The notes beneath the pieces were generated by a model. The model searched no databases. It was not told the DNA's origin and was given only the letters and a program-made list of their open reading frames with translations. This document shows, piece after piece, positions 4,295-38,905 of a DNA stretch of 41,290 nt. The stretch is from a virus. Its lineage: Duplodnaviria > Caudoviricetes. A program made the translations under genes and the position numbers. Position 1 is the stretch's first letter. Every line of letters starts with the position of its first letter. Where the stretch lies: IMG/VR virus record IMGVR_UViG_3300040971_000086, positions 1-41,290 of that record. One strand, given 5' to 3'.

Positions 4295-7200
4295 TTAACC
4301 CATGCCTCCCACTGCGCGGCCTTCCCGCTTACTTATTCTTTCTACCTCTAAATTTAACCTGTTCATGAAACCTCTGTCCTTAACCAGGATTTTAATTAAT
4401 TCGCTGTCGGTTATAACTTTTTTAAGTAATTCAACCAGGCTTGCCTCGTTAATATTTTCTGGTAAGTTTTCCAGGTTTATATTAAGATTTAAGTCCATTT
4501 CTTCCAATATTTTTATTTCTTTGGTGTTACTGCCTGGTGCTTCAATTAAATCCGCAGGGCCTGCGCTTCTTACCCTTGGGCTCATTAAACCATGTCCTGC
4601 CTGGATAGCGGTGGTATCTATGTCAATGCCTCCCACTTTACTCCATACATGACGCGTTGAACCCCAGAAGCCCCTTTGCATGCTGTTTGATAATCCAAAT
4701 TTAGAGGCAAGACCCCGGACAATTTGCATTCCGTCCCAACAATTAAAATTCCCATTTCTTAATGCTGCCGCAGGACTTCCATATCCACTATTAAAGTAGA
4801 ATTTGTACTTTGTTTTTCCTATAACTCCCTGTATCCACTTGGCAAACCATTGCGCATTGGCCTTTAAAGGCATTGTGCTGTTAGTGAAATCTCCCACTTT
4901 AAGGGTTTGACCCAGGCCTTCAAATTGAGGTATCCAGTTATTAACTTTACCCATGGCTTGCTTAATCCACGGCGCATCATAATCCCACCCCGCAAAGCAA
5001 TTATAAGGGTCATTGCATGCACCTTCGGGCATGTCTTCTAATATCTGGGTGTCTGGGGAAGGGCCTGCATAGCCTCCACCGCCTCCGCTTATATTGATAT
5101 TAGGCATGTCTGGGGAAGGGCCTGCATAGCCTCCACTGCTTAACAACCTTGCAGGGTTCCTTATACGACCCCAGAAAGTAGCCATATTTGAGGATAAGTT
5201 TCTTATTTTACTGGTTACTTGGCTATCAATTGTCTTTGCAGAGCCTATTAACGCGCTTTTCATTCCGTCCCATGACCGTTCTACGGTGTTTATTTCTTTG
5301 GTGGTTCCGGTTCTTATTGCTGCAAGTGTTGTCCGGGTAACTGTTGAAATTGCCTGGTATCCTTTGCGGTTTTCTTCGCCCATGGTTCTTATAGTGGAGG
5401 TCATGGTTTTTTCCATTCCCTTAAAAGTGGTATCTGTGAATGAACTCACTGTTGTTAGTATGCCCTGGGTGGTATTGGATTGGGCTTGCAATGCGTCGGT
5501 ATCATAAAATTGAGTAACCGTTGCAGAATTCGGGTCTATGGTCGGGGTGTCTGCGCTAATATTTGCAGACATTTCAAGATTACCTATGTTATTTTTTATT
5601 CCCTCTCCCATCTGTGCCGCTGCATCACCCACGCCATTATTCAGTAAGGTATCCTCTAACCGTGAAACCTCCTCCGTAAACCTATAATACATGAAACCAG
5701 GGCTTTTAATTCCTAATGCTCCCAGGAAACCGTCTAATATTTTCTTACCCAGTCCCTGCGCTTTCTGCCATAACTGTCCTCCTATTTCTGTTATTTTCCC
5801 ACCGATTTTAAGCAATTCATTATAAACTTTGCCTGGTGCCTGTTTAATTTGGCTTAAAAGACCTTCTAAGAATTTAATACCTGCGTCAATTGCTCTTTGC
5901 CTTATACTTCGTGCAAAGTTTAGAACATAGTTTGCAGTGGATACCAACCAGTTCCAGAATTTCCCAGGTAATGATTTAATATTGTTAATTAAATTATTAA
6001 CAAATCCTTTCCCTGCATTCACGGCCTTATTCCACATGTCCGCAGCCCATTTCCCCAGGTTTTTAATAATAGCAAATAATATCTCCGCGAACATTAATTT
6101 AACGCTATCCCAGATTTGGCCAAGAGCCTCGCCTGCTGTTATATTGCCTTCCACTAACTGGGTAATTATATCTATTACTCGTGTGAAATGACCCATAACT
6201 GCGCCAAGTATGCCTATTATGGTTTCCCACACCGCACCGAATAGACTGCCCGCTATTTCCGCACCGACGCTTAATATTTCCCATAACTGTTCAAATGCAG
6301 GCGTGAAATGTTCTATTATAAGGCTGCCTACCCAGATTAAAACATCTCCCACGGCAGCGAATACTCCCTGTAAGGTTGTCCAAATATCCCCCGCTTCTGC
6401 GGACTTATCATCAAGCCATGCACCCGCAACAACCATAATTGCGTCCCATAACCTGCCTAATGCAGCCAATAAAGGAGATATTATGCCCATTAACCTATTC
6501 CAACCCTCTTGAATTGCCGTTATTGCAGGTTGAAGAAATGAAACCAACGCGTCCCATAAACCCATAATAGATTCCCGGAACCCTTCATTATTCTGCCATA
6601 CATAAATAAGGACACCCACGAGAGCAAGAATTAAAATTATTATAATTCCAATAGGGTTTGCAGACATTGCTGCATTTAAAGCCCATTGCGCAGCAGACGC
6701 GGCCATAGTGGCACCTGTTTTCACCGCGGTTACTGCGCTTCCTAACACTGTCGCCGCGTTATCCTTTAATTTAGATAAAAAGCCCGTATTCGTGGCAGCG
6801 GTGGCTGTATTAACTGCTCCTGCATGTGCCATTGCTGCGCCTGTTGCTACGGACAGAGATGTCGCGCTCCCATAATTTAATAAGATATTTGCACCGCTTG
6901 CAATTTTAGATTTAATTTTAGATAATAATCCCGCATTGGTGGCGGTGGTATTTGCAACCATTGCTCCGGTTTCCCCTGCGGTTGAACCTGCCAATAATAT
7001 CTTTGCACTTGCAAGACCTGTGACAATAGTAGATAAACCTGCCATTGCCCCGCCGACGCTTGAAACCATGCTTAGAGTATCTCCATATTGCATAGTAATA
7101 TCGTCTAAGGCGGCTCTTGCCTGGTCTATAACTGTTTTATGTTCCGCTTCTTCTGCTGCGGCTTCATTTATCTTACCTGCATAGGCTGCCGTCGCCTGTT

Positions 7201-10946: not shown

Positions 10947-11372
10947 CTATAATATTATCTCTTCAAGAGAGTATCTGGTGCTTTTATGGCTTTGGCTTAC
11001 TATATAAGGGTCGGCTTCCGCGTCCTGGGTCTTTTTAAGTTCCTGGTCTATATATGCGGTTAACATTGCCTGCGCCTGTTCCATATAAAAGTCAACACCT
11101 GTATTCTCATCACTATTAGAGTTAAATAAGGGTTGTAATGCTTCTGCCGTCGCATAGTGGGTCGCGGCTTGCTTTATTGCGGGAGGTATTTGGGAAGGTA
11201 CTGTTAACCCATGCTTTCCCAGGTTAATATCTACCCAGGCATTAGCCCCAGAAAGAGCCTCTAACATTAATGCGTCCTCTGGGGGTTGTCCGGTTACTTG
11301 CAAGCGGGCTTTAACTCCCTCATAACTGCCATAATAACCCGTTAAATCTGGGTTGTCTGTTGTTAGTCCCAT
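10947..11372 (-). CDS. Head-tail adaptor (gp15/gp6/Mu gp36-like)
   Basis: YGSYEGVKARL...ALSGANAWVDINL...IPPAIKQAATHYA is an adaptor-type helical pattern; synteny agrees. Confidence 0.7.
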   Translation of the reverse strand: MGLTTDNPDLTGYYGSYEGVKARLQVTGQPPEDALMLEALSGANAWVDINLGKHGLTVPSQIPPAIKQAATHYATAEALQPLFNSNSDENTGVDFYMEQAQAMLTAYIDQELKKTQDAEADPYIVSQSHKSTRYSLEEIIL

Positions 11373-12769: not shown

Positions 12770-12812
12770 TGTTCTCACATCTCAAAAGCATAAATTAATA
12801 AATAACTATAAA

Positions 12813-20862: not shown

Positions 20863-20980
20863 TTTATGCCTTCCCTCCTTTGTTAATTTGTTATTAAGTT
20901 ATTATTTTTTTATATTAATTCTGTTAAATATTGCCTAAATCACGGGGTTTAATTAGAATTAGTAATACTTTATAAAATAA

Positions 20981-21056
20981 GGTTAGATAGTAACCTTTAT
21001 ATAGTCCAGGGGATAATGTATAATTAACTAACATACATTGCAAAGAGGCACAAACC
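20981..21056 (+). promoter_or_regulatory. Promoter/leader cassette, inverted copy
   Basis: GGTTAgatagTAACC-TTTATATA-GTCCAGGGGATAATGTATAATTAACTAACAT...GAGGCACAAACC-ATG; reverse complement of the six - strand copies. Confidence 0.9.
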
Positions 21057-21203
21057 ATGAAAACCGAAAATAACAACACATTAAACCAAGACTATGAACA
21101 ATGGGTATTAAACCAGGTCTGCAACCACCCGCGCAAAGATTACTGCCTGGATTGCACAAATTGCCCTGCCCGCACAGGCCATGACCTGGCAAAGCACAGA
21201 TAA
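21057..21203 (+). CDS. 48-aa Cys/His-rich protein; the only credible + strand gene
   Basis: Hand translation MKTENNNTLNQDYEQWVLNQVCNHPRKDYCLDCTNCPARTGHDLAKHR; follows a full cassette with RBS and is followed by a T-rich tract. Confidence 0.75.
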   Translation: MKTENNNTLNQDYEQWVLNQVCNHPRKDYCLDCTNCPARTGHDLAKHR

Positions 21204-21232: not shown

Positions 21233-21790
21233 TTACTTATTTATAATGTTATAAAACTCTGCCCTGGCTTTGCTTTTATTAAATACTCCTTTAATCGCGC
21301 TTGTTGAAACCGCAGCGGTGTCATTCTTAACCCCGCGCATAGCCATGCAATAATGCCTGCTGTTCTTAATAACCACTATAACCCCGCGGGGTTTTAATGT
21401 CTTATCAATTACTTCTGCAATGTCTTCTGTTATTTTTTCCTGTAATTGCAGGCGCTGCGTTATTGCCTGGGTTATTCTTACGAACTTACTTATCCCTGCA
21501 ATCTTGCCGTCTGGTATATAACCAATATAAACCTCCATATTAAAGGGTAATAAGTGATGCGCGCATAGGCTATAAGATTTAATAGGGCCTATGGTAATCA
21601 TTTGGTCATAGTCCTTTTCTTCAAAGGTTTTAAGTAGGGTTTCCGGGTTTATTTTATACCCTTGCAAGACTTCCATTAACCCCTTTGCTGCGCGGCCTGG
21701 GGTTTCCATTAAATGCGGGTCATCTTGCCACCCAGGTTCTATTTCATTTAAAATTAATGTTATTCCCTGTTCAATTCTGTTTATTTTCAT
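21233..21790 (-). CDS. folE: GTP cyclohydrolase I (type IA)
   Basis: ETPGRAAK, SLCAHHLLPF, GISKFVR, RLQLQE, HYCMAMRGV. Start at 21790 overlaps the queC stop (ATGA). Confidence 0.95.
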   Translation of the reverse strand: MKINRIEQGITLILNEIEPGWQDDPHLMETPGRAAKGLMEVLQGYKINPETLLKTFEEKDYDQMITIGPIKSYSLCAHHLLPFNMEVYIGYIPDGKIAGISKFVRITQAITQRLQLQEKITEDIAEVIDKTLKPRGVIVVIKNSRHYCMAMRGVKNDTAAVSTSAIKGVFNKSKARAEFYNIINK

Positions 21791-22422
21791 ATATGGCCCT
21801 CTGCTGTTTTTAATGCTTCTTTTCTTTCTGTGCAGGCTCCGCATTTCCCGCATGGTTTATCTTTGCCTTCGTAGCAAGTCCATGTCTTATTAAATGGGAC
21901 TTGTAATCTTAAACCAATCTCTGCAATTGCTATTTTATCTATTTTTAAGAATGGGGCAATAACTTGAACAGAGTTATAATTAGATATTTTACTTACTTCA
22001 TTCATTTTAAAAAAGAATTCTGGACGGCAATCTGGATAAATTGCATGGTCGCCGCTGTGCGCAGCATACGCCACTTTATCCGCTCCTATATTAACCGCAT
22101 AGGCTATTGCCAGGCTTAACAGTATCATATTTCTATTTGGGACTACTGTGCTTTGCATGCTTTTATCTTCATAATGACCCTTTGGAACTGGTTTGTTACT
22201 GGTTAAACTACTTTCATTTATCAATTCGTGTATGCCTGTTATATCTACAACCTTATGCGGAGTATTTGTTAACCTGGTTATTTCCTGGGCAGCAAGTAAT
22301 TCTTTTTTATGCTTTTGATTATAGTCAAAACTTAAACAATAAACCTCATGCCCTTTATTTAGCAAATAATATAATAAGGTTGTACTATCCATTCCCCCAG
22401 ACAATAATAAAACCGTTTTCAA
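21787..22422 (-). CDS. queC: 7-cyano-7-deazaguanine synthase
   Basis: LLSGGMDST, VPNRNMILLS, YPDCRPEF, TWTCY...CGKCGACTER. Confidence 0.97.
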   Translation of the reverse strand: MKTVLLLSGGMDSTTLLYYLLNKGHEVYCLSFDYNQKHKKELLAAQEITRLTNTPHKVVDITGIHELINESSLTSNKPVPKGHYEDKSMQSTVVPNRNMILLSLAIAYAVNIGADKVAYAAHSGDHAIYPDCRPEFFFKMNEVSKISNYNSVQVIAPFLKIDKIAIAEIGLRLQVPFNKTWTCYEGKDKPCGKCGACTERKEALKTAEGHI

Positions 22423-23321
22423 TTTATAACCTCCTCATAAGTTAGATTTCCTTTAAAGTAATTATGGTACTGTCGCCAGTTATTTTTAACCGCGTCTTTA
22501 TAATCATTTATATTGTTCATTAACTGTATAAGAACAGGCTTTGCATCATTCCAAGTTCTTGCTTCTGGTTTTTCTCCCTTAACTCTTGGTATTTTAAGCG
22601 CATTGCCATTTATCTTAATACTGCCTGTTCTTCTAACCAGAATATGATTACTATTATCTATACTAAACAGAGGATACTTTGCACAGTATTTATGAGATAC
22701 ACCCAGGCCATGAAATTTAATACCTTCTTTCTTACCCAGTATAAAACATTTTTTTAAAAACTGTTCTCTTATTTTATTATGCTTTCCAACCATTCCACCC
22801 AGGGAAATATAATCATAACCCTCGTCTATATACTTTTTTAGCCATTTATAAGGGCTGCCCAGGTGGAAAACAGGTATAACTTCCAGGCCATGGTCTTCTA
22901 TTATTTTCTGGTTTTGATATGTTTCTTCTGGGTTCCTTATTTTATCAAAGTTAAACGCATATCTATATCTTGCGCTCTTTAAAAAAGTCATATAATCATT
23001 TATATTTAAATCTAAGCCCAATGTGTCAATACTGTAACCGCCACTGTCAATTATTATGTTTTCCGCTGCTAATCTGGGATTAAATGCTTCATACATATCT
23101 TTATAGGCGAAACTAAACAGGTGAGAAGTATTAGTTAAATCCTCTACTAATCTTTTAACCTTCTCTGCATTCTTTTCTTCAACATCATAACCCTTACTAT
23201 TGCTTAAATAAAGATTATGGGATTTATTTAAACTTACAACACCATAATGAGGCATACTATCCACTCCTTTAAGATAAACATTGCAATAGGTTGCAGAACC
23301 CGCCACTGTAAAATGAGGCAT
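22419..23321 (-). CDS. dpdA: TGT-fold DNA 7-deazaguanine transglycosylase (DpdA-like)
   Basis: IIDSGGYS, FNFDKI, IPVFH, YISLGGMV, FHGLG, FSIDNS in TGT motif order, embedded in the que cluster. There is an alternative start at 23255. Confidence 0.8.
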   Translation of the reverse strand: MPHFTVAGSATYCNVYLKGVDSMPHYGVVSLNKSHNLYLSNSKGYDVEEKNAEKVKRLVEDLTNTSHLFSFAYKDMYEAFNPRLAAENIIIDSGGYSIDTLGLDLNINDYMTFLKSARYRYAFNFDKIRNPEETYQNQKIIEDHGLEVIPVFHLGSPYKWLKKYIDEGYDYISLGGMVGKHNKIREQFLKKCFILGKKEGIKFHGLGVSHKYCAKYPLFSIDNSNHILVRRTGSIKINGNALKIPRVKGEKPEARTWNDAKPVLIQLMNNINDYKDAVKNNWRQYHNYFKGNLTYEEVIN

Positions 23322-23326
23322 AAATA

Positions 23327-23941
23327 TTAATCCACCTGCATAATTACATGCAATCTCACACCCAGGCGACAGTCTGGGAATTCATATAAAATCCTTTCTA
23401 ATAAAGCCTTATCCGGGAAACCAGGCCCTGTTACAGGCGTTATTACAATACGGCTATCTACTAAAAAGTTATTGCTTATAAAATCCAGGTCTTTCCCGTT
23501 GCTTATAACCATTTTAAACTCTGTTTTATCTGGGAACTCTGCGTCTGTCTGGGTTATTACATCGCTAAGGCTTTTCTCCCTGCTCCCAGGGGTTTTAATA
23601 TCCATACAAATAAGGTCAACCATTCCAAATATGGCCTCATTAAATATTGTCCCATTGGTTTCCAGGCTTACCAGGTACTTTAAATCTTTTAATAATATAA
23701 CCAGTTCTTCAAGTTCTTTACTTTGCAGTAAGGGTTCCCCGCCTGTTATCTTAACAATGCTTGCAGGATAATCTCTTATTTTATCCATTATTTCTTGCGG
23801 TGTTTTATTGCAGCGCATACTATGGTCTGTATCGCACCAGGCACAGGCAATGTTACAACCTGCAAGCCTTATAAAAATAGTAGGGTATCCTTGCCACCTG
23901 CCTTCGCCTTCAAAACTATAAAAAATATTATTTAATTTCAA
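23327..23941 (-). CDS. queE: 7-carboxy-7-deazaguanine synthase (radical SAM)
   Basis: IFYSFEGEG, FIRLAGCNIACAWCDT, ITGGEPLLQ, LETNGT. Likely TTG start at 23941 overlapping the queD stop. Confidence 0.95.
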   Translation of the reverse strand: MKLNNIFYSFEGEGRWQGYPTIFIRLAGCNIACAWCDTDHSMRCNKTPQEIMDKIRDYPASIVKITGGEPLLQSKELEELVILLKDLKYLVSLETNGTIFNEAIFGMVDLICMDIKTPGSREKSLSDVITQTDAEFPDKTEFKMVISNGKDLDFISNNFLVDSRIVITPVTGPGFPDKALLERILYEFPDCRLGVRLHVIMQVD

Positions 23942-24297
23942 TATTGCACCCCGCATTCTGGGGTTTCCCAAATAATTAATTTGGTTACTGGCAAGTCCTT
24001 GCATAGTTCATGTTTAAGATGCACCGCAAGATTTTCCGCAGTAGGGTTAAAATCATATAATTTATTTAAACATCTGTGGTCGGGTAATGCGTTATTAATA
24101 AGTTTTTTAATATCCTTAAAATCATATTCAATAGTTTCCCCTGGGTTTGTTTTAATATACACATCTATATTCCATCTGTGCCCGTGCAAATGACTGCATT
24201 CTCCATTATAATTATTTAAATAATGTGCTGCGTCAAAATGGGTTTTAACTATTAGATTTAAATCTGGTTTTAATAAAGCGGGGTTATTCAATTTCAA
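23938..24297 (-). CDS. queD: 6-carboxytetrahydropterin synthase
   Basis: FDAAHYL..Y.GECSHLHGH, DHRCLN, NPTAENLA, WETP. Likely TTG start behind GGTGAGG. Confidence 0.95.
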   Translation of the reverse strand: MKLNNPALLKPDLNLIVKTHFDAAHYLNNYNGECSHLHGHRWNIDVYIKTNPGETIEYDFKDIKKLINNALPDHRCLNKLYDFNPTAENLAVHLKHELCKDLPVTKLIIWETPECGVQY

Positions 24298-24799
24298 ATT
24301 CCTCACCACACTCTGGGCAGACGACTTCTTTTGGCTTTTTAGGTGGTTTTTCTGGTATATTTTCCCCTTCTTCAAGATTAACCTCCCCTTCAAAGTCATT
24401 GTTTAATAATAAACTGTCTATTTCTGCAATTTTAAACCCAGTCAATTCCAGGTTAATATCCTTTGTTTGTAATTCTGTGAAGATAACTTCTAATTGAGGG
24501 AAATCCCATTGGTTATATTCCCCTAATTTGTTATCTGCTAACATTATCTGCAAGGCTTCCGGTGTATCATGCATATGAGGGCTTCTTGTACACGGTATTT
24601 CTTTATATCCTAATCTTGTAACTGCTGCCTTTATTGCACCATGCCCCGCTAATGTGTAATTATCTTTACTTAATAGCGCAGCCCTGCCCCACCCTACGGC
24701 CTTAATTACCTCTGCAATCATGTCTAATTGTTCCGGTGGGTGCTTCTTTGGGTTGTTTGGGTGCGGTTTAATATCATCTATACTGATAAACTCTACCAT
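24284..24799 (-). CDS. ParB-N-like protein with C-terminal Zn ribbon
   Basis: IKPHPNNPKKH, LAGHGA, LADNKLGE, LELTGF, CPECG; heads the modification cluster. Confidence 0.85.
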   Translation of the reverse strand: MVEFISIDDIKPHPNNPKKHPPEQLDMIAEVIKAVGWGRAALLSKDNYTLAGHGAIKAAVTRLGYKEIPCTRSPHMHDTPEALQIMLADNKLGEYNQWDFPQLEVIFTELQTKDINLELTGFKIAEIDSLLLNNDFEGEVNLEEGENIPEKPPKKPKEVVCPECGEEFEIE

Positions 24800-24826: not shown

Positions 24827-25021
24827 TTATTCTTTTATACTAACTGCATTCCTGCATAGCGGACAGGACATCTCTATGCATCTGCCCGTTACTTTATCAA
24901 TTTCCCCATAATGTTTTATCATATAATCCCCTGTCTTAGATACAGATTTTAAAACAAATTCTGTTCCGCAAGCACATTCGCAGATTAAAAAATTCTTATT
25001 TGTATTAATAGAACAGGACAC
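24827..25021 (-). CDS. Small Cys-rich (zinc-binding) protein
   Basis: CECACG...CPLC. Confidence 0.55.
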   Translation of the reverse strand: MSCSINTNKNFLICECACGTEFVLKSVSKTGDYMIKHYGEIDKVTGRCIEMSCPLCRNAVSIKE

Positions 25022-25464: not shown

Positions 25465-25728
25465 CTACTGTTCGCTGTCCATAACTTTGTTTAATTTATC
25501 GATTGCATACGGGGCAATATAGGCAAATACAAATCCTTGAAGAGGAGTAGTTATTTGGTCTGGGGAGGCTTCCATAATAACAACCACTGCGACAACACCG
25601 ATAATAATTGTCCCCAATGTGTTCAATTTAAGCGTTTTATTTTCCCAGGTCGGGAGAATTAGATACTCTTCCATTAAAATAATTCTACAAAGAACCCCGC
25701 ATAAAACTGCCAATAATATCCAAATCAT
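25465..25728 (-). CDS. Small multi-pass membrane protein (holin-like)
   Basis: Three hydrophobic segments in ~87 aa and a charged C-terminus; start MIWILL. Confidence 0.55.
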   Translation of the reverse strand: MIWILLAVLCGVLCRIILMEEYLILPTWENKTLKLNTLGTIIIGVVAVVVIMEASPDQITTPLQGFVFAYIAPYAIDKLNKVMDSEQ

Positions 25729-25771
25729 TTTCTTAATCACTTTCCATCGTTTTTTTAACACAAACAAATAT

Positions 25772-25813
25772 TTTAATAAAATAAAAAAATAAGAATAAAA
25801 AAAAAAAAAAGAA
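25772..25813 (-). terminator. Oligo-T terminator after the structured RNA
   Basis: A run of about 14 A plus further A tracts on the + strand, read as T tracts on the - strand directly after the closing stem. Confidence 0.55.
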
Positions 25814-26213
25814 ATAATATTTTAATAGTAAAAGACCCTCCACCGCCTGGGCATTTATTTGCAGCAAACAGAACACATTTATTTAAATAAAAACCTGTTG
25901 CTCTAATCTGGAGAAAAAAATTGTTAGGAGGTGAATATTTTTTTTGAATTAAAACCTTTTTTAATTAAATAAAAATCACAGTTCCCTGCAAATAGTCCCC
26001 TCCCTGGGCAGGGTTGTTCCCGCATCATATCTTAAATTATTGGTGGTTAATTTTTAAAATATGGTAATATAATTATCCCTCTGCACCTGGGGAACAGGTT
26101 ATACTAAAAAAATAATAAAATAATAAAGGAGGTCAAGAAAAAATTACTTTATTAAATCCTTTTAAACCATTCATGCCCATTAGGTGGAGAGCCTTTTACT
26201 ATTAAAATATTAT
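25814..26213 (-). ncRNA. Candidate ~400-nt structured RNA with anti-SD loops
   Basis: 41-nt inverted arms (25814..25854, 26173..26213): 36 Watson-Crick pairs, 2 G-U pairs on the - strand only, and a 3x3 loop. Internal hairpins carry GACCUCC, ACCACC and CACCUCCU. A long U tract follows; there is no ORF. Confidence 0.65.
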
Positions 26214-26383
26214 ACAGTAGTAGGCAAGGGATTACTAAATAAGATTTCCTCTACTTTAATTTTAACACCGGACACTTGCAAAGGCAAATATGTCGCAGCA
26301 ACCGCGCCGCAGGCCTTGCAATAAATATCCCGTTTATCTTTAATTAAATGAGGGGAATTGCATTCTTCACATTTAAACAACAT
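26210..26383 (-). CDS. Stand-alone TFIIB/TFB-type zinc ribbon protein (57 aa)
   Basis: Hand translation MLFKCEECNSPHLIKDKRDIYCKACGAVAATYLPLQVSGVKIKVEEILFSNPLPTTV. The C..C.S..L..D....YC..CG.V pattern resembles the TFB N-terminal ribbon. GAGATGGGTG lies upstream. Confidence 0.7.
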   Translation of the reverse strand: MLFKCEECNSPHLIKDKRDIYCKACGAVAATYLPLQVSGVKIKVEEILFSNPLPTTV

Positions 26384-26496
26384 TTAACACCCATCTCAAA
26401 AGCACAACCAAATTGAGAATATTAAATATAATATTTTTTCTTATTTAGTAATTCCTTAAACCAAATTAATCATATTAAGGGGAAAGTAAAATTTCC

Positions 26497-26523
26497 CCTT
26501 CATATAATAGTAGTTACTAATTT
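26497..26523 (-). promoter_or_regulatory. 27-bp element, copy 2; putative late promoter
   Basis: Identical to 14473..14499, followed by the hairpin AAGGGGAAA-N6-TTTCCCCTT (26477..26500). Confidence 0.7.
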
Positions 26524-27038
26524 GACAGGTAATCCAGAATAAAATCCTGGTTAAATATTAAAAAAAGACCAATACCAATCAACAAAAGACCCGCTATTGC
26601 AGGCGCATCTATAACTAAAAACTCATCTAATGCAGTCCAATTAAATGCAAATAAGGCTGCGCCTTTATTAGTAATATAATTCTTAGTTCTGCTTAAATAT
26701 CTCCGGTGTTCCCTGTTTATTATGCGCATTTCTTTTTCAAAATCAGGGTTCCCCTCTTTATCTGTGGCAATGTTTAATCCTAATGTCGTTGTCCCTGGCC
26801 TATTATTAAGGTTATATGCTTTCCACCGCTTGCGATAATTAACCATGCGCAGCCTTGCTTTCTCATTATATGCCAGTTTTTGGCAGTCTGTGTCCTCTGG
26901 GTCGCAGTATCTTTGATTTGGAGATTTTAATGTTTTAAGTGGTTTCCCGCACCAATAACAGAATTTATCCTCTTCAAATTTATTTTCTATTTGTTCCGCT
27001 TGCTTTGTTCCGCCGCGGACACTATTTGCATTCTCCAT
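26517..27038 (-). CDS. Zinc-finger protein with C-terminal hydrophobic segment
   Basis: CYWCGK...RYC....DC, a basic helix, and the transmembrane-like AIAGLLLIGIGLFLIF. Confidence 0.65.
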   Translation of the reverse strand: MENANSVRGGTKQAEQIENKFEEDKFCYWCGKPLKTLKSPNQRYCDPEDTDCQKLAYNEKARLRMVNYRKRWKAYNLNNRPGTTTLGLNIATDKEGNPDFEKEMRIINREHRRYLSRTKNYITNKGAALFAFNWTALDEFLVIDAPAIAGLLLIGIGLFLIFNQDFILDYLSN

Positions 27039-27427: not shown

Positions 27428-27662
27428 AAAAATCCTCCAATATAAGAAAACTTAATAATTTATATAAGAAGTAAGGCATAGTAATATTTGGCAAGGAGGG
27501 GAATTGCATTAAACCCTCTAAGATATACATAAAAAAAATTCTCCATCTCAAAAGCACAAACAACCGGACTATTTTTTTTTAAATAAATTAATAAATTAAT
27601 ATGTCTTAGTGGGTTAAAAGAACCCTTCTGCCAATCCTCTGTTAAAAATAAATATAAGGGGT

Positions 27663-28066: not shown

Positions 28067-28636
28067 TTATTTAGTATCTACCATTTTAACCGCTTGCACC
28101 TTTATCCTGGTAATATCTTCATCAGTAAGTTCCCAGTCCTTTTTAACTTTAAGCGCATAATTAACCACTCTGCCCGCGGTGGGTTTGCCTTGCAGTTCTT
28201 TTAATATTAAATTAATGGTTTCCCGTGCTTCTGGGTCGTCCTCATCAGCCATATTAGATGCCTGCCCCTCCGCTTTATCATTACCCTCCGCTTTATTAAC
28301 CGCTTTGCCTGGTTTGTGGAACACCTGGAACATTTTAAAAGGGCTGCGCGGTGCTTTCTGCGGGATAGTTTTCTTTAATATAATTTTAATGCAGTCGCCC
28401 AGGTCAGCCATTGCCATTTTCTGTTGAATGTCTGTGGTTGCGTACACTTGCCTATCCCCTTCTTTGGTTTCCAAAGTATATCGCGTTTTTTCGTATGCGC
28501 CTACCTTTTCCTCCTTTTTAACATAAATTCCAATGATTTCCGCGCCTATTTCTTCCGGTTTCCAGACTTGGTTTTCTGGTATTAATTCCACCCAGTCTTG
28601 CTCTTGCATATCTTTTGTCATAATAACACACTCCAA
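28067..28636 (-). CDS. Putative OB-fold ssDNA-binding protein
   Basis: VWKPEEIGAEIIGIY...YTLET..G...VYAT...L GDCIKI pattern of viral OB-fold proteins. Confidence 0.5.
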   Translation of the reverse strand: MECVIMTKDMQEQDWVELIPENQVWKPEEIGAEIIGIYVKKEEKVGAYEKTRYTLETKEGDRQVYATTDIQQKMAMADLGDCIKIILKKTIPQKAPRSPFKMFQVFHKPGKAVNKAEGNDKAEGQASNMADEDDPEARETINLILKELQGKPTAGRVVNYALKVKKDWELTDEDITRIKVQAVKMVDTK

Positions 28637-29595: not shown

Positions 29596-29829
29596 TTATA
29601 AGGTTTTAAATTCCTCATAGCATTGTTCGCATTCGTGGGTTATAATGGGGGCCACTGGGCCTATTTCTGGGTTTCCGGTGTCCCTGTGTTGGGTTATTGT
29701 TACAAATTTCTGCCCAGGTGTTAAGGTTTTTTCGCATGCGTCGCAGGTTATTTCCCCAGTCATGCATTCGCTTACTATTAAATATTCAAATTCGGTTTCT
29801 AATGTGTTGTTTTTTATATTGGTTTTCAT
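29596..29829 (-). CDS. Small zinc-binding protein, cassette-driven
   Basis: CDAC...HECEQC; ATG abuts a cassette. Confidence 0.7.
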   Translation of the reverse strand: MKTNIKNNTLETEFEYLIVSECMTGEITCDACEKTLTPGQKFVTITQHRDTGNPEIGPVAPIITHECEQCYEEFKTL

Positions 29830-29903
29830 GTTTTGTGCCTCTGCAAGTAATGTTAGTTAATTATACATTATACCCCGGACTATATAAAGGTTACGGTATA
29901 ACC
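29830..29903 (-). promoter_or_regulatory. Promoter/leader cassette copy
   Basis: GGTTATACCGTAACC-TTTATATA-GTCCGGGGTATAATGTATAATTAACTAACATTACTTGCAGAGGC. Confidence 0.92.
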
Positions 29904-29920
29904 TCTAAAAAATAAGGGGA

Positions 29921-30215: not shown

Positions 30216-30515
30216 TTAAATTTCCAGACTGGTATAATAAGCCAAGTCCACTACTTCCGCGATTATTTCATTGTTATGGTCGCATAATTCCACCAAATCA
30301 ATTTCCTCTGCGGGGTTTGCGTTTAATTTGCTTTCCCATAGGTCAGCGAGTTCTGTGTAATCATGCCTGCGCAGGCATGCAATTTCCCCTTCTATATGTT
30401 GTCGGGTCATCATGTGCCCAGTCCACATTTCCGCCAGGGTTTCCCTGGTTAAGCGGTATAATTCTGCGGTTTCGGTTGCGGTTGCGGTTTTAAATAAATT
30501 CATAGTTTTTTTCAT
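30216..30515 (-). CDS. Hypothetical protein, cassette-driven
   Basis: ATG abuts a cassette. Confidence 0.7.
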   Translation of the reverse strand: MKKTMNLFKTATATETAELYRLTRETLAEMWTGHMMTRQHIEGEIACLRRHDYTELADLWESKLNANPAEEIDLVELCDHNNEIIAEVVDLAYYTSLEI

Positions 30516-30589
30516 GGTTTGTGCCTCTGCAAGTTATGTTAGTTAATTATACATTATCCTCTGGACTATATAAAGGTTACGGTATAACC
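30516..30589 (-). promoter_or_regulatory. Promoter/leader cassette copy
   Basis: Same consensus as 29830..29903 with few substitutions. Confidence 0.92.
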
Positions 30590-30624
30590 TTTATAAAAAA
30601 ATAATAAAAAAAATACCAGACAAA

Positions 30625-31093: not shown

Positions 31094-31336
31094 TTAATTT
31101 AAGTCCATATAAGCAAAGTTAACATCATTTATCATGTATTGCTTTTTCTGTTGGTTGATTTCAACAGACAGTTCTGCGCCTGTTACTGTATTAAAAAGGG
31201 TTGCTTGCACCCATTCCTCGCGTTCATTAGTATGTACAACCATTTCCATTTTATCCTTTGCCCAGTATGTTTTAGTCATGCGGACATTGGTGTTATTTAT
31301 TCTTTTATAGGTTTTTTCTATTGTTTTTATTTCCAT
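31094..31336 (-). CDS. Hypothetical protein, cassette-driven
   Basis: True start MEIKT at 31336, behind the cassette RBS. Confidence 0.7.
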   Translation of the reverse strand: MEIKTIEKTYKRINNTNVRMTKTYWAKDKMEMVVHTNEREEWVQATLFNTVTGAELSVEINQQKKQYMINDVNFAYMDLN

Positions 31337-31411
31337 GGTTTGCCTCCAATGCAAGTAATGTTAGTTAATTATACATTATACCCCGGACTATATAAAGGTT
31401 ACTATATAACC
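31337..31411 (-). promoter_or_regulatory. Promoter/leader cassette copy
   Basis: Consensus copy; palindrome GGTTAtatagTAACC. Confidence 0.92.
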
Positions 31412-31472
31412 TCTACCTGGGAAAGTTACCCAGGAGATAAGACCCAGGGAAAGATTAAGTTTTCAATTATAA

Positions 31473-31494: not shown

Positions 31495-31508
31495 AAAAAA
31501 TAAAAATA

Positions 31509-31578
<70 letters not shown>

Positions 31579-31621
31579 TAATAAATATAATATTAAAAAA
31601 GGTATATCTGGAAAATCTGTA

Positions 31622-36155: not shown

Positions 36156-36536
36156 TTATTCCCCTCTTAATTGATTTTCCCAGGTGCTGCCTATTCTGCG
36201 GACTTTGCGTTCCATTGCTTGCATTGTTTCCAGTTCTTTTAATAAGGCTTCTTTTCTTGCTGCTATTTTATTTTTTTCTGCATTAAATGCTTTTCTTGCT
36301 TCTTTCCATTCTTCTGGGCCGTCTGCGCTGCCTAATAATGTGTCAAGTTTCATAACTCTTACTGCGCGGGGTTTTCCCATTGCGTCCACTGTTTTGAGGT
36401 ATTCTATATCTATGTCAAAGTTACAATCCAGGCACCACTTCGCGGCTTCGCCCCTGTAATTTGTTTCGGTTTTTAGGTTTTTCCCACCACAGGCAGGACA
36501 GGTTTTTATTTGGTTTATTCTGTTTTCGGTTTTCAT
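36156..36536 (-). CDS. Zinc ribbon plus coiled-coil protein, cassette-driven
   Basis: CPACGG...CLDC; ATG abuts a cassette. Confidence 0.7.
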   Translation of the reverse strand: MKTENRINQIKTCPACGGKNLKTETNYRGEAAKWCLDCNFDIDIEYLKTVDAMGKPRAVRVMKLDTLLGSADGPEEWKEARKAFNAEKNKIAARKEALLKELETMQAMERKVRRIGSTWENQLRGE

Positions 36537-36615
36537 GTTGTGTTTGCCTCCAATGCAAGTAATGTTAGTTAATTATACATTATACCCCGGACTATATAAA
36601 GGTTACGGTATAACC
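36537..36615 (-). promoter_or_regulatory. Promoter/leader cassette copy
   Basis: Consensus copy. Confidence 0.92.
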
Positions 36616-36651
36616 TTGCATTATTTATTTAAAAAAAATACCAGGCAAATA

Positions 36652-38020: not shown

Positions 38021-38185
38021 TTATTCCTCGCATTGTTTGCAATGCCTGCATACTATATTAGAGTTATTTAAACAGGTTCCATTCTGTTTAAGGTATTCTT
38101 TCCACAGGCCAGGGCCTACATAAGCGTCTTTTTTTATTTCTTCTTCCCGTGCTTTGCTTCTAAATTCATTTATTTGTTTGTTCAT
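38021..38185 (-). CDS. Small Cys-rich protein, cassette-driven
   Basis: Start MNKQ at 38185; C...CRHCKQC. Confidence 0.65.
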   Translation of the reverse strand: MNKQINEFRSKAREEEIKKDAYVGPGLWKEYLKQNGTCLNNSNIVCRHCKQCEE

Positions 38186-38260
38186 GTTGGTTTGCCTCTG
38201 CAAGTTATGTTAGTTAATTATACATTATCCTGCGGACTATATAAAGGTTACGGTATAACC
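38186..38260 (-). promoter_or_regulatory. Promoter/leader cassette copy
   Basis: Consensus copy. Confidence 0.92.
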
Positions 38261-38303
38261 TCGCATTATTTATTTAAAAAAATACCAGGGAAAAATCCCT
38301 GTT

Positions 38304-38516: not shown

Positions 38517-38705
38517 TTATTCCTCTTCCTCTATGTCTTCGTCGTAGTGCCCATTTAATATTGCTGCGGCTTCCATCATTGCAGCGCGCTTTGCAAAGTA
38601 GATTTGGGCTATTTCTGGGGTTTCTTCTGCTTTTCCCATTTCGTGGTATTCTGTGGCTTTTAATAAAATATGTGCTTTTCTTTGGTTGTTTGATTTATTT
38701 TTCAT
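38517..38705 (-). CDS. Hypothetical protein with acidic tail, cassette-driven
   Basis: Start MKNK at 38705. Confidence 0.65.
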   Translation of the reverse strand: MKNKSNNQRKAHILLKATEYHEMGKAEETPEIAQIYFAKRAAMMEAAAILNGHYDEDIEEEE

Positions 38706-38783
38706 GTTGGTTTGCCTCCAATGCAAGTAATGTTAGTTAATTATACATTCTCCTCCGGAGTATATAAAGGTTACGATATAACC
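38706..38783 (-). promoter_or_regulatory. Promoter/leader cassette copy
   Basis: Consensus copy; palindrome GGTTAtatcgTAACC. Confidence 0.92.
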
Positions 38784-38844
38784 TTTATAAAAGAAGATTG
38801 GAAAATCCTTTATAGATTATACTGATACTTTATATCTCCTCTCC

Positions 38845-38869
38845 ACTATATAAAGGTTACTCTCTAACC
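38845..38869 (-). promoter_or_regulatory. Partial cassette (palindrome plus TATA only)
   Basis: GGTTAgagagTAACC-TTTATATAGT without the leader. Confidence 0.8.
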
Positions 38870-38905
38870 CCGCATTATTTATTAAAAAAAATAATAGAAG
38901 CAAAC

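Follow-up and report, generated by a model that had tools for sequence, protein, structure and literature searches.

A segment of about 400 nt, at positions 25814 to 26213 of the window (the whole stretch of viral DNA analyzed here, 41,290 nt), appears to be a real and unusual structured element. Its predicted fold, the G-U bias of its mismatches and shuffle tests support the central claim of a first-pass annotation made from the sequence alone: that the minus strand specifies a structured RNA displaying anti-Shine-Dalgarno (anti-SD) loops. We read this RNA, with slightly less than even confidence, as the structured 3′ portion of a transcript that the virus makes late, with C-rich loops that broadly mask Shine-Dalgarno (SD) sites in trans, in the manner of RNAIII and the cuckoo RNAs.

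The window is a complete virus record with nearly all of its genes on the minus strand, and its coding capacity includes a portal, a terminase, a tail tube, a C39 peptidase that bears a pseudomurein-binding repeat, and a 7-deazaguanine cassette. Among annotated phages, the terminase is closest to those of Methanobacteriales viruses (28 to 34% identity), and the gene adjoining the element has relatives in a Methanobacteriaceae assembly; from these two observations we infer that the host order is Methanobacteriales, and the hosts are likely methane-producing archaea. The 7-deazaguanine DNA-modification cassette (21233-24399: FolE, QueC, TGT-like, QueE, and QueD) is flanked by ParB-like and small terminase genes, and a sister virus lacks it at this place. 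A long (AAT)n tract at 31500-31600, with similar tracts in the related proviruses L012, L013, L054, and L055, is a possible replication origin or assembly-sensitive repeat. Words containing CCWGG are frequent genome-wide (a raw count of 188 CCAGG/CCTGG per strand).

The element is closed by a stem, P1, whose 41-nt arms (Table 1) are 88% complementary, with 5 of 41 positions departing from Watson-Crick pairing. When both strands were folded, a check proposed in the first-pass annotation, the minus strand gave −122.2 kcal/mol (z = −7.45) and the plus strand −100.6 kcal/mol (z = −5.0), so that the minus-strand fold is better by 21.6 kcal/mol. On the minus strand P1 comprises 31 bp, including two G-U pairs, followed by a 3-by-3 internal loop and 7 bp. 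The arms had been placed correctly, though the internal loop had been omitted; the earlier observation that both G-U pairs of the minus strand become A-C on the plus strand, as in an RNA helix formed in the direction of transcription, is confirmed in P1. Because the inner 318 nt folded alone are no more stable than shuffles (z = −1.4), it is P1 that carries the folding signal. The long U tract said to follow the stem is a T14 run, the longest T run on the minus strand of the genome. No Rfam family matched at gathering score in the window, nor at an E value of ≤10 in 25700-26600.

Table 1. Features of the candidate RNA and its surroundings; structural features are predicted
Feature	Position	Strand	Evidence
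5′ arm of P1	26173..26213	−	Pair probabilities 0.98-0.99
3′ arm of P1	25814..25854	−	Fold; arms 88% complementary
T14 tract, candidate archaeal terminator	25797..25810	−	Putative function
Arm A, with 18-nt loop 26142-26125 carrying GACCUCCUUU	26097..26168	−	Main helix probability 0.78
Hairpin B, ACCACC loop 26047-26042, weakest anti-SD	26026..26063	−	Helix probability 0.88; weak duplexes with viral starts
Internal G-rich SD-like segment, can pair with loop A or C	25995..26006	−	Duplex energies
Arm C, long irregular stem, terminal loop 25936-25922	25856..25994	−	Helix probabilities 0.56-0.92
Fourth C-rich motif, CUCCA bulge of arm C	25909..25913	−	Unpaired probability 0.84-0.96
Zinc-ribbon ORF, 57 aa	26210..26383	−	Pfam Zn_Ribbon_TF, E = 1.4e-5 (below cutoff); A2L_zn_ribbon above cutoff
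12-nt leader, candidate late start/RBS for a transcript bearing the RNA	26392..26403	−	Copy counts
Leader motif copies before capsid gene, zinc-ribbon gene, and short unannotated ORF	12778-12789, 26392-26403, 27544-27555		Sequence match
87-aa membrane protein gene, first of packaging/structural block, anchor for relatives	25465..25728	−	22 relatives

Enclosed by P1 in the predicted fold are arm A and hairpin B, a middle part that is rich in G+C and folds weakly, and the long arm C. The three C-rich motifs lie in hairpins at the positions first reported and are predicted to be unpaired rather than buried in stems: GACCUCCUUU in loop A (26134-26125, unpaired probability 0.81 to 0.90), ACCACC in loop B (unpaired probability 1.0), and UUCACCUCCUAA in loop C (25935-25924, 0.80 to 0.99). 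All three are also predicted to stay open when 700 nt of context is folded and when the temperature is set to 55°C. The CUCCA bulge of arm C is a fourth C-rich motif; it is complementary to GGAGA-type sites, including those of late genes. C accounts for 24 of 99 confidently unpaired positions versus 28 of 245 paired ones.

The equation of a loop motif with the anti-SD also stood: UCACCUCCU in loop C (25934-25926) is identical to the 3′ end of 16S rRNA in a Methanobacteriales genome, and inspection of a genome of the host order bore out GGAUCACCUCCU as the 16S tail. Of 20,000 dinucleotide shuffles, 12 contained a 9-nt match to the anti-SD and 3 contained two copies of ACCUCCU; both are post hoc statistics, chosen after the motifs had been seen. 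Two of the four minus-strand copies of ACCTCCT in the genome fall inside the element, and its accessible anti-SD energy of −15.6 (shuffle mean, −7.3) was reached by none of 40 shuffles. The G-rich segment at 26006-25995 can form intramolecular duplexes with loop A or C (−11.4 and −12.0 kcal/mol), pairings that also appear in the fold listing as helices of 7 and 6 bp; it could thus occupy a loop, which counts against action in trans.

The element had been described as free of ORFs. This does not hold strictly: a zinc-ribbon ORF of 57 aa and TFIIB type has its stop codon in the first bases of the 5′ arm, and ORFs of 34 and 47 aa also overlap the segment. By position, the element is therefore a 3′ untranslated region of the zinc-ribbon gene. 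On its other side lies the gene for an 87-aa membrane protein, which is holin-like in position and hydrophobicity only and found no family above cutoff in Pfam, NCBIfam, or PHROGs.

Upstream of the zinc-ribbon ORF stands a 12-nt motif that occurs exactly three times in the window, versus 0.22 expected, one copy preceding the capsid gene. In the sister virus L053 the same motif lies at 2022-2033 and 4657-4668, before the capsid and tail-tube genes. We regard it as a candidate late start, or else a leader or translation element, and its occurrence before the capsid gene lends indirect support to late timing of the RNA. A scan of the minus strand from 29888 to 8309 found no TTTATATA promoter, and the nearest plus-strand TTTATATA upstream of the element is at 20996; a sigma-70 scan gave nothing above chance, its model being inapplicable to archaea. 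Elsewhere in the genome, TTTATATA is the box of a repeated early-promoter cassette of ~100 nt (29813-29915, 30499-30601, 31321-31423, 36525-36627, 38170-38272, 38693-38795, and 38845-38893), in which it sits beside a GGTTA-N5-TAACC palindrome and is followed by a common leader and RBS. With eight copies of the palindrome, an inverted one included, this cassette looks like an operator-controlled early regulon. The inverted cassette (20972-21100, plus strand), with an RBS and a short ORF from about 21058, faces the 7-deazaguanine block and opposes the main direction of transcription.

If the trans reading is right, transcription would run from about 26405 to the T tract and yield ~600 nt comprising the zinc-ribbon ORF and the RNA, a layout like that of RNAIII. 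P1 would stabilize the RNA ends, or host RNase III would free the inner ~330 nt. With the C-rich loops held open by the closing stem, they would pair in trans with SD sites of many host and viral mRNAs and dampen their translation; the capsid mRNA, to which no loop is matched, would suffer comparatively little. As the loops cover the AGGAGG, GGUGG, and GGAGA classes, the effect would be broad rather than early specific. A bolder version, to which we give perhaps one chance in five, is late host shutoff by RNA alone: a dual-function transcript whose RNase III-cut 3′ part, a multivalent mimic of the 16S tail, sponges strong SDs throughout the host transcriptome and is evaded by the capsid mRNA, which has a leader of its own. 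Methanobacteriales viruses would then have a class of long-stem RNAs where their early and late regions meet, with the element as its most elaborate member.

RNase III processing of P1 is plausible on two counts, a long helix (31 + 7 bp) and the presence of the enzyme in the host order. Bacterial-type RNase III (PF00636) scores above the Pfam cutoff in 247 of 328 Methanobacteriales genomes, and the one copy examined (L110, 1393-2052; 219 aa) passes the NCBIfam equivalog cutoff of TIGR02191. Our literature search found no functional study of a Methanobacteriales RNase III and none of methanogen RNase III activity on such stems. Excision by EndA was rejected as unlikely, because the best G+C-rich bulge-helix-bulge (BHB) register forms three of the four central pairs at a cost of 7.9 kcal/mol. 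No strict BHB, in which a helix of 4 bp lies between two bulges of 3 nt, is consistent with the fold of the window.

Two more specific ideas about targets did not survive. The 12-nt complement between the first P1 arm and the RBS of the ArdC-like gene exists, but at least one such 12-mer occurs in 774 of 1,000 shuffles of the element, and the same arm matches the RBS of the late gene at 11372 equally well, over 12 nt; we therefore reject ArdC-specific targeting as chance level. The element as a whole holds seven 12-mer complements versus a mean of 2.1, a number reached by 28 of 1,000 shuffles, and the longest complements (14 and 13 nt) lie outside the loops. We also reject selective masking of early genes. 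With early and late labels assigned by position and the zinc-ribbon gene counted as early, AGGAGG precedes 8 of 27 early and 4 of 23 late genes (P = 0.25), so the contrast drawn earlier between AGGAGG at early genes and GGAGAT-type sites at structural genes is not borne out; over seven tests of early-versus-late selectivity, P ranged from 0.17 to 0.41.

A loop match of at least 6 nt is present at 11 of the 27 early starts and at 8 of the 22 late ones (one doubtful late start left out). Given this lack of selectivity, the RNA would also hit those 8 late starts, and the GGAGA-complementary bulge likewise argues against the proposal that early and host SDs are masked while structural genes are spared. 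What remains of that proposal is the capsid RBS, which, like that of the membrane gene (25728), has no exact loop match; the scaffold, decoration, large terminase, and tape measure starts have a 4-nt match only. The duplex of loop C with the RBS at 25021 scores −13.7, and that of loop A with 24799 scores −11.7. In five genomes of the host order, sites of the loop A type before ATG number 15 to 60, versus 11 to 17 in a reversed control, and exceed that control in four of the five, the remaining one being about level; 10-mers of the loop C type number 0 to 3 in the five. The loops therefore suit generic strong RBSs rather than a chosen set.

To place the element among its relatives, we gathered the boundary regions of other viruses and proviruses by means of membrane gene, terminase, and portal anchors. 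The first set held 14 regions and the second 18, of which six had a default length of 400 nt; the loci are phylogenetically nonindependent. The zinc-ribbon gene lies upstream in most relatives inspected by eye. The sister virus has a terminase of 70% identity and the same late gene order, and its contig ends 72 nt before the membrane gene. Searches for homologues of the RNA gave low-complexity matches only (blastn against phage records) and AT-rich noise only (against G001, G002, and eight virus loci). Viral scans with the membrane protein of the window found nothing, and the sister protein as query gave matches; no relatives were found for the upstream proteins at 26517-27038 and 28067-28636. 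A search with the early-promoter pattern returned six loci, one an identical fragment and five without protein likeness to the window, and Rfam over 16 relative loci found one tRNA only.

Besides the window, 9 of the 14 first-set regions and 5 of the 18 second-set regions proved to contain a long inverted repeat in a strand-neutral search. Across the window and its relatives, with the near-duplicate L071 left out, the sense-strand mismatches of these boundary repeats are G-T in 10 cases versus A-C in 1 (P = 0.006). The arms hardly vary between L064 and L071, whose interiors differ in both sequence and length and lack an anti-SD loop, so the stem, not the loops, looks like the common function. 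The boundary stem thus looks recurrent, and the loops are lineage variable at most. Stems in L021, L023, and L026 (two stems) have a common GTTCGAT/ATCGAAC-type core and variable interiors and are possibly a small RNA family of their own; an alignment of them has double changes in 6 of 20 pairs, to which we give little weight because one row is misaligned.

Accessible anti-SD sequence is less common at these boundaries. The window and 3 of the 14 first-set relatives (L021, L023, and L010) beat all 40 of their shuffles, and 11 did not; the window shares the loop 10-mer UCACC(U/C)CCUA with L021 and L010, where it lies at the same boundary. Set against 66 intergenic control regions, the relatives show a modest enrichment when all 32 are taken together (length-adjusted P = 0.03, for nonindependent loci) and none when the first 14 are taken alone (P = 0.16). 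The window itself lies 6.9 kcal/mol below the length fit of the controls (residual standard deviation, 2.7). One control equals the window with a score of −15.9 and looks like an RBS of the opposite strand; L010 and several second-set matches also come with an antisense start codon. The window has three antisense SDs, and these lead to no ORF of more than 3 codons. Directly after the zinc-ribbon stop, L094, L095, L097, and L099 carry a conserved sense segment complementary to an SD plus AUG, which is either a tiny antisense ORF (5 to 13 codons) or an anti-start RNA; the anti-start-region motifs of relatives had no near-perfect target in searches of four and of five genomes.

The recurrence of long stems that end the upstream gene, in relatives with and without anti-SD loops, bears directly on the strongest alternative, a boundary element acting in cis. 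Here P1 and T14 would terminate the transcript, process it through RNase III, or stabilize it before the membrane and packaging genes, and the loops would pair locally with the G-rich segment or the first downstream RBSs as a timing switch. We think this rather unlikely, yet worth serious consideration: the TTTATATA-free minus strand from 29888 to 8309, the two intramolecular duplexes, the pairing of loop C with the RBS at 25021 and of loop A with 24799, and RNase III in the host order all agree with it. It fits poorly with a single G-rich receptor for three or four C-rich motifs, with the absence of an exact loop match at the nearest downstream RBS (25728), and with a candidate late start directly upstream; moreover, a terminator or processing stem needs no 9-nt copy of the 16S tail.

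The remaining explanations fare worse. That the loops mimic the 16S 3′ tail in order to bind an anti-SD-binding protein rather than mRNAs, as a structural or decoy RNA, would suit the exact 9-nt identity, which has no mRNA-specific extension, and the 400-nt multi-arm architecture; we consider it improbable, as neither a candidate protein nor an Rfam likeness emerged and the tail sequence is not kept in loops A, B, and D. Function of the plus strand, whether as an antisense RNA showing SDs as ribosome decoys or with the motifs as relics of opposite-strand RBSs, is a shade less probable again. The plus strand does fold, and similar matches elsewhere, both in relatives and in controls, often precede an antisense start codon, but the antisense SDs of the window lead to at most 3 codons, the energy difference, the G-U bias, and the T tract all favor the minus strand, and the nearest upstream plus-strand TTTATATA is at 20996. 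Least probable of all is a DNA-level inverted repeat (a MITE, or a site for packaging or recombination) or an AT-rich palindrome that arose by chance. The 41-nt arms and an interior without significant structure of its own would allow this, but the sense-strand G-T bias across loci and the anti-SD statistics oppose it, and a MITE was rejected because the element is single copy within the 41,290-nt genome and its flanks differ, with no target-site duplication found in them.

If its loops act as the trans reading supposes, the element would work like several known regulators while belonging, by Rfam or motif, to none of them. RNAIII of Staphylococcus aureus has a small ORF in its 5′ part. Parts of two sources describe it as a large multi-hairpin RNA in which three C-rich loops pair with RBSs and RNase III is involved (PMC2837412, PMC4615179). 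The element resembles it in having several C-rich motifs predicted to be unpaired in hairpin loops, and differs in belonging to an archaeal virus, in loops that copy the 16S tail (ACCUCCU, versus UCCC in RNAIII), in one 38-bp stem that encloses all loops, and in matching no Rfam model. The cuckoo RNAs of Alphaproteobacteria have two to four hairpin loops, each anti-SD-like, according to part of a source in which global versus specific repression is debated (PMC4615179). As described there, cuckoo loops are all CCUCCUCCC on short adjacent hairpins; those of the element are GACCUCCUUU, ACCACC, and UCACCUCCUAA on AU-rich stems inside an enclosing stem. We found neither CCUCCUCCC in each loop of two to four adjacent hairpins nor an Rfam match.

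Among archaeal RNAs, sRNA41 and sRNA154 (loop 2) of Methanosarcina mazei mask RBSs to repress translation (PMC5867862, in part); they differ, in the portion covered, in being chromosomal and condition regulated with defined targets, and the element has no Rfam match to either. Bacterial RNase III stems and the archaeal BHB stems of pre-rRNA offer a further comparison, each being a long helix with an internal loop that encloses structured RNA (PMC10515664, in part). P1 shares this arrangement but departs from BHB stems in its imperfect register and energy cost. The RNase III sites of T7 are also processing stems.

Our literature search, including the part of a viral RNA catalogue that was covered, with which overlap is possible (PMC10690425), brought up no archaeal virus with a multi-loop anti-SD RNA; its supplementary table has three Methanobrevibacter entries, with lengths of 94 and 69 nt among the rows listed, and a study of MetSV noted only host sRNAs in the part covered. 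If the trans reading is true, this virus redirects translation by an RNA, not a protein, in a host group for which we found no viral regulatory RNA described. The recurring boundary stems would in any case be natural candidate substrates for the RNase III of the 247 of 328 Methanobacteriales genomes, and the loops would bear on the question raised for the cuckoo RNAs, in the part of that source covered, of whether anti-SD loops repress globally or specifically (PMC4615179).
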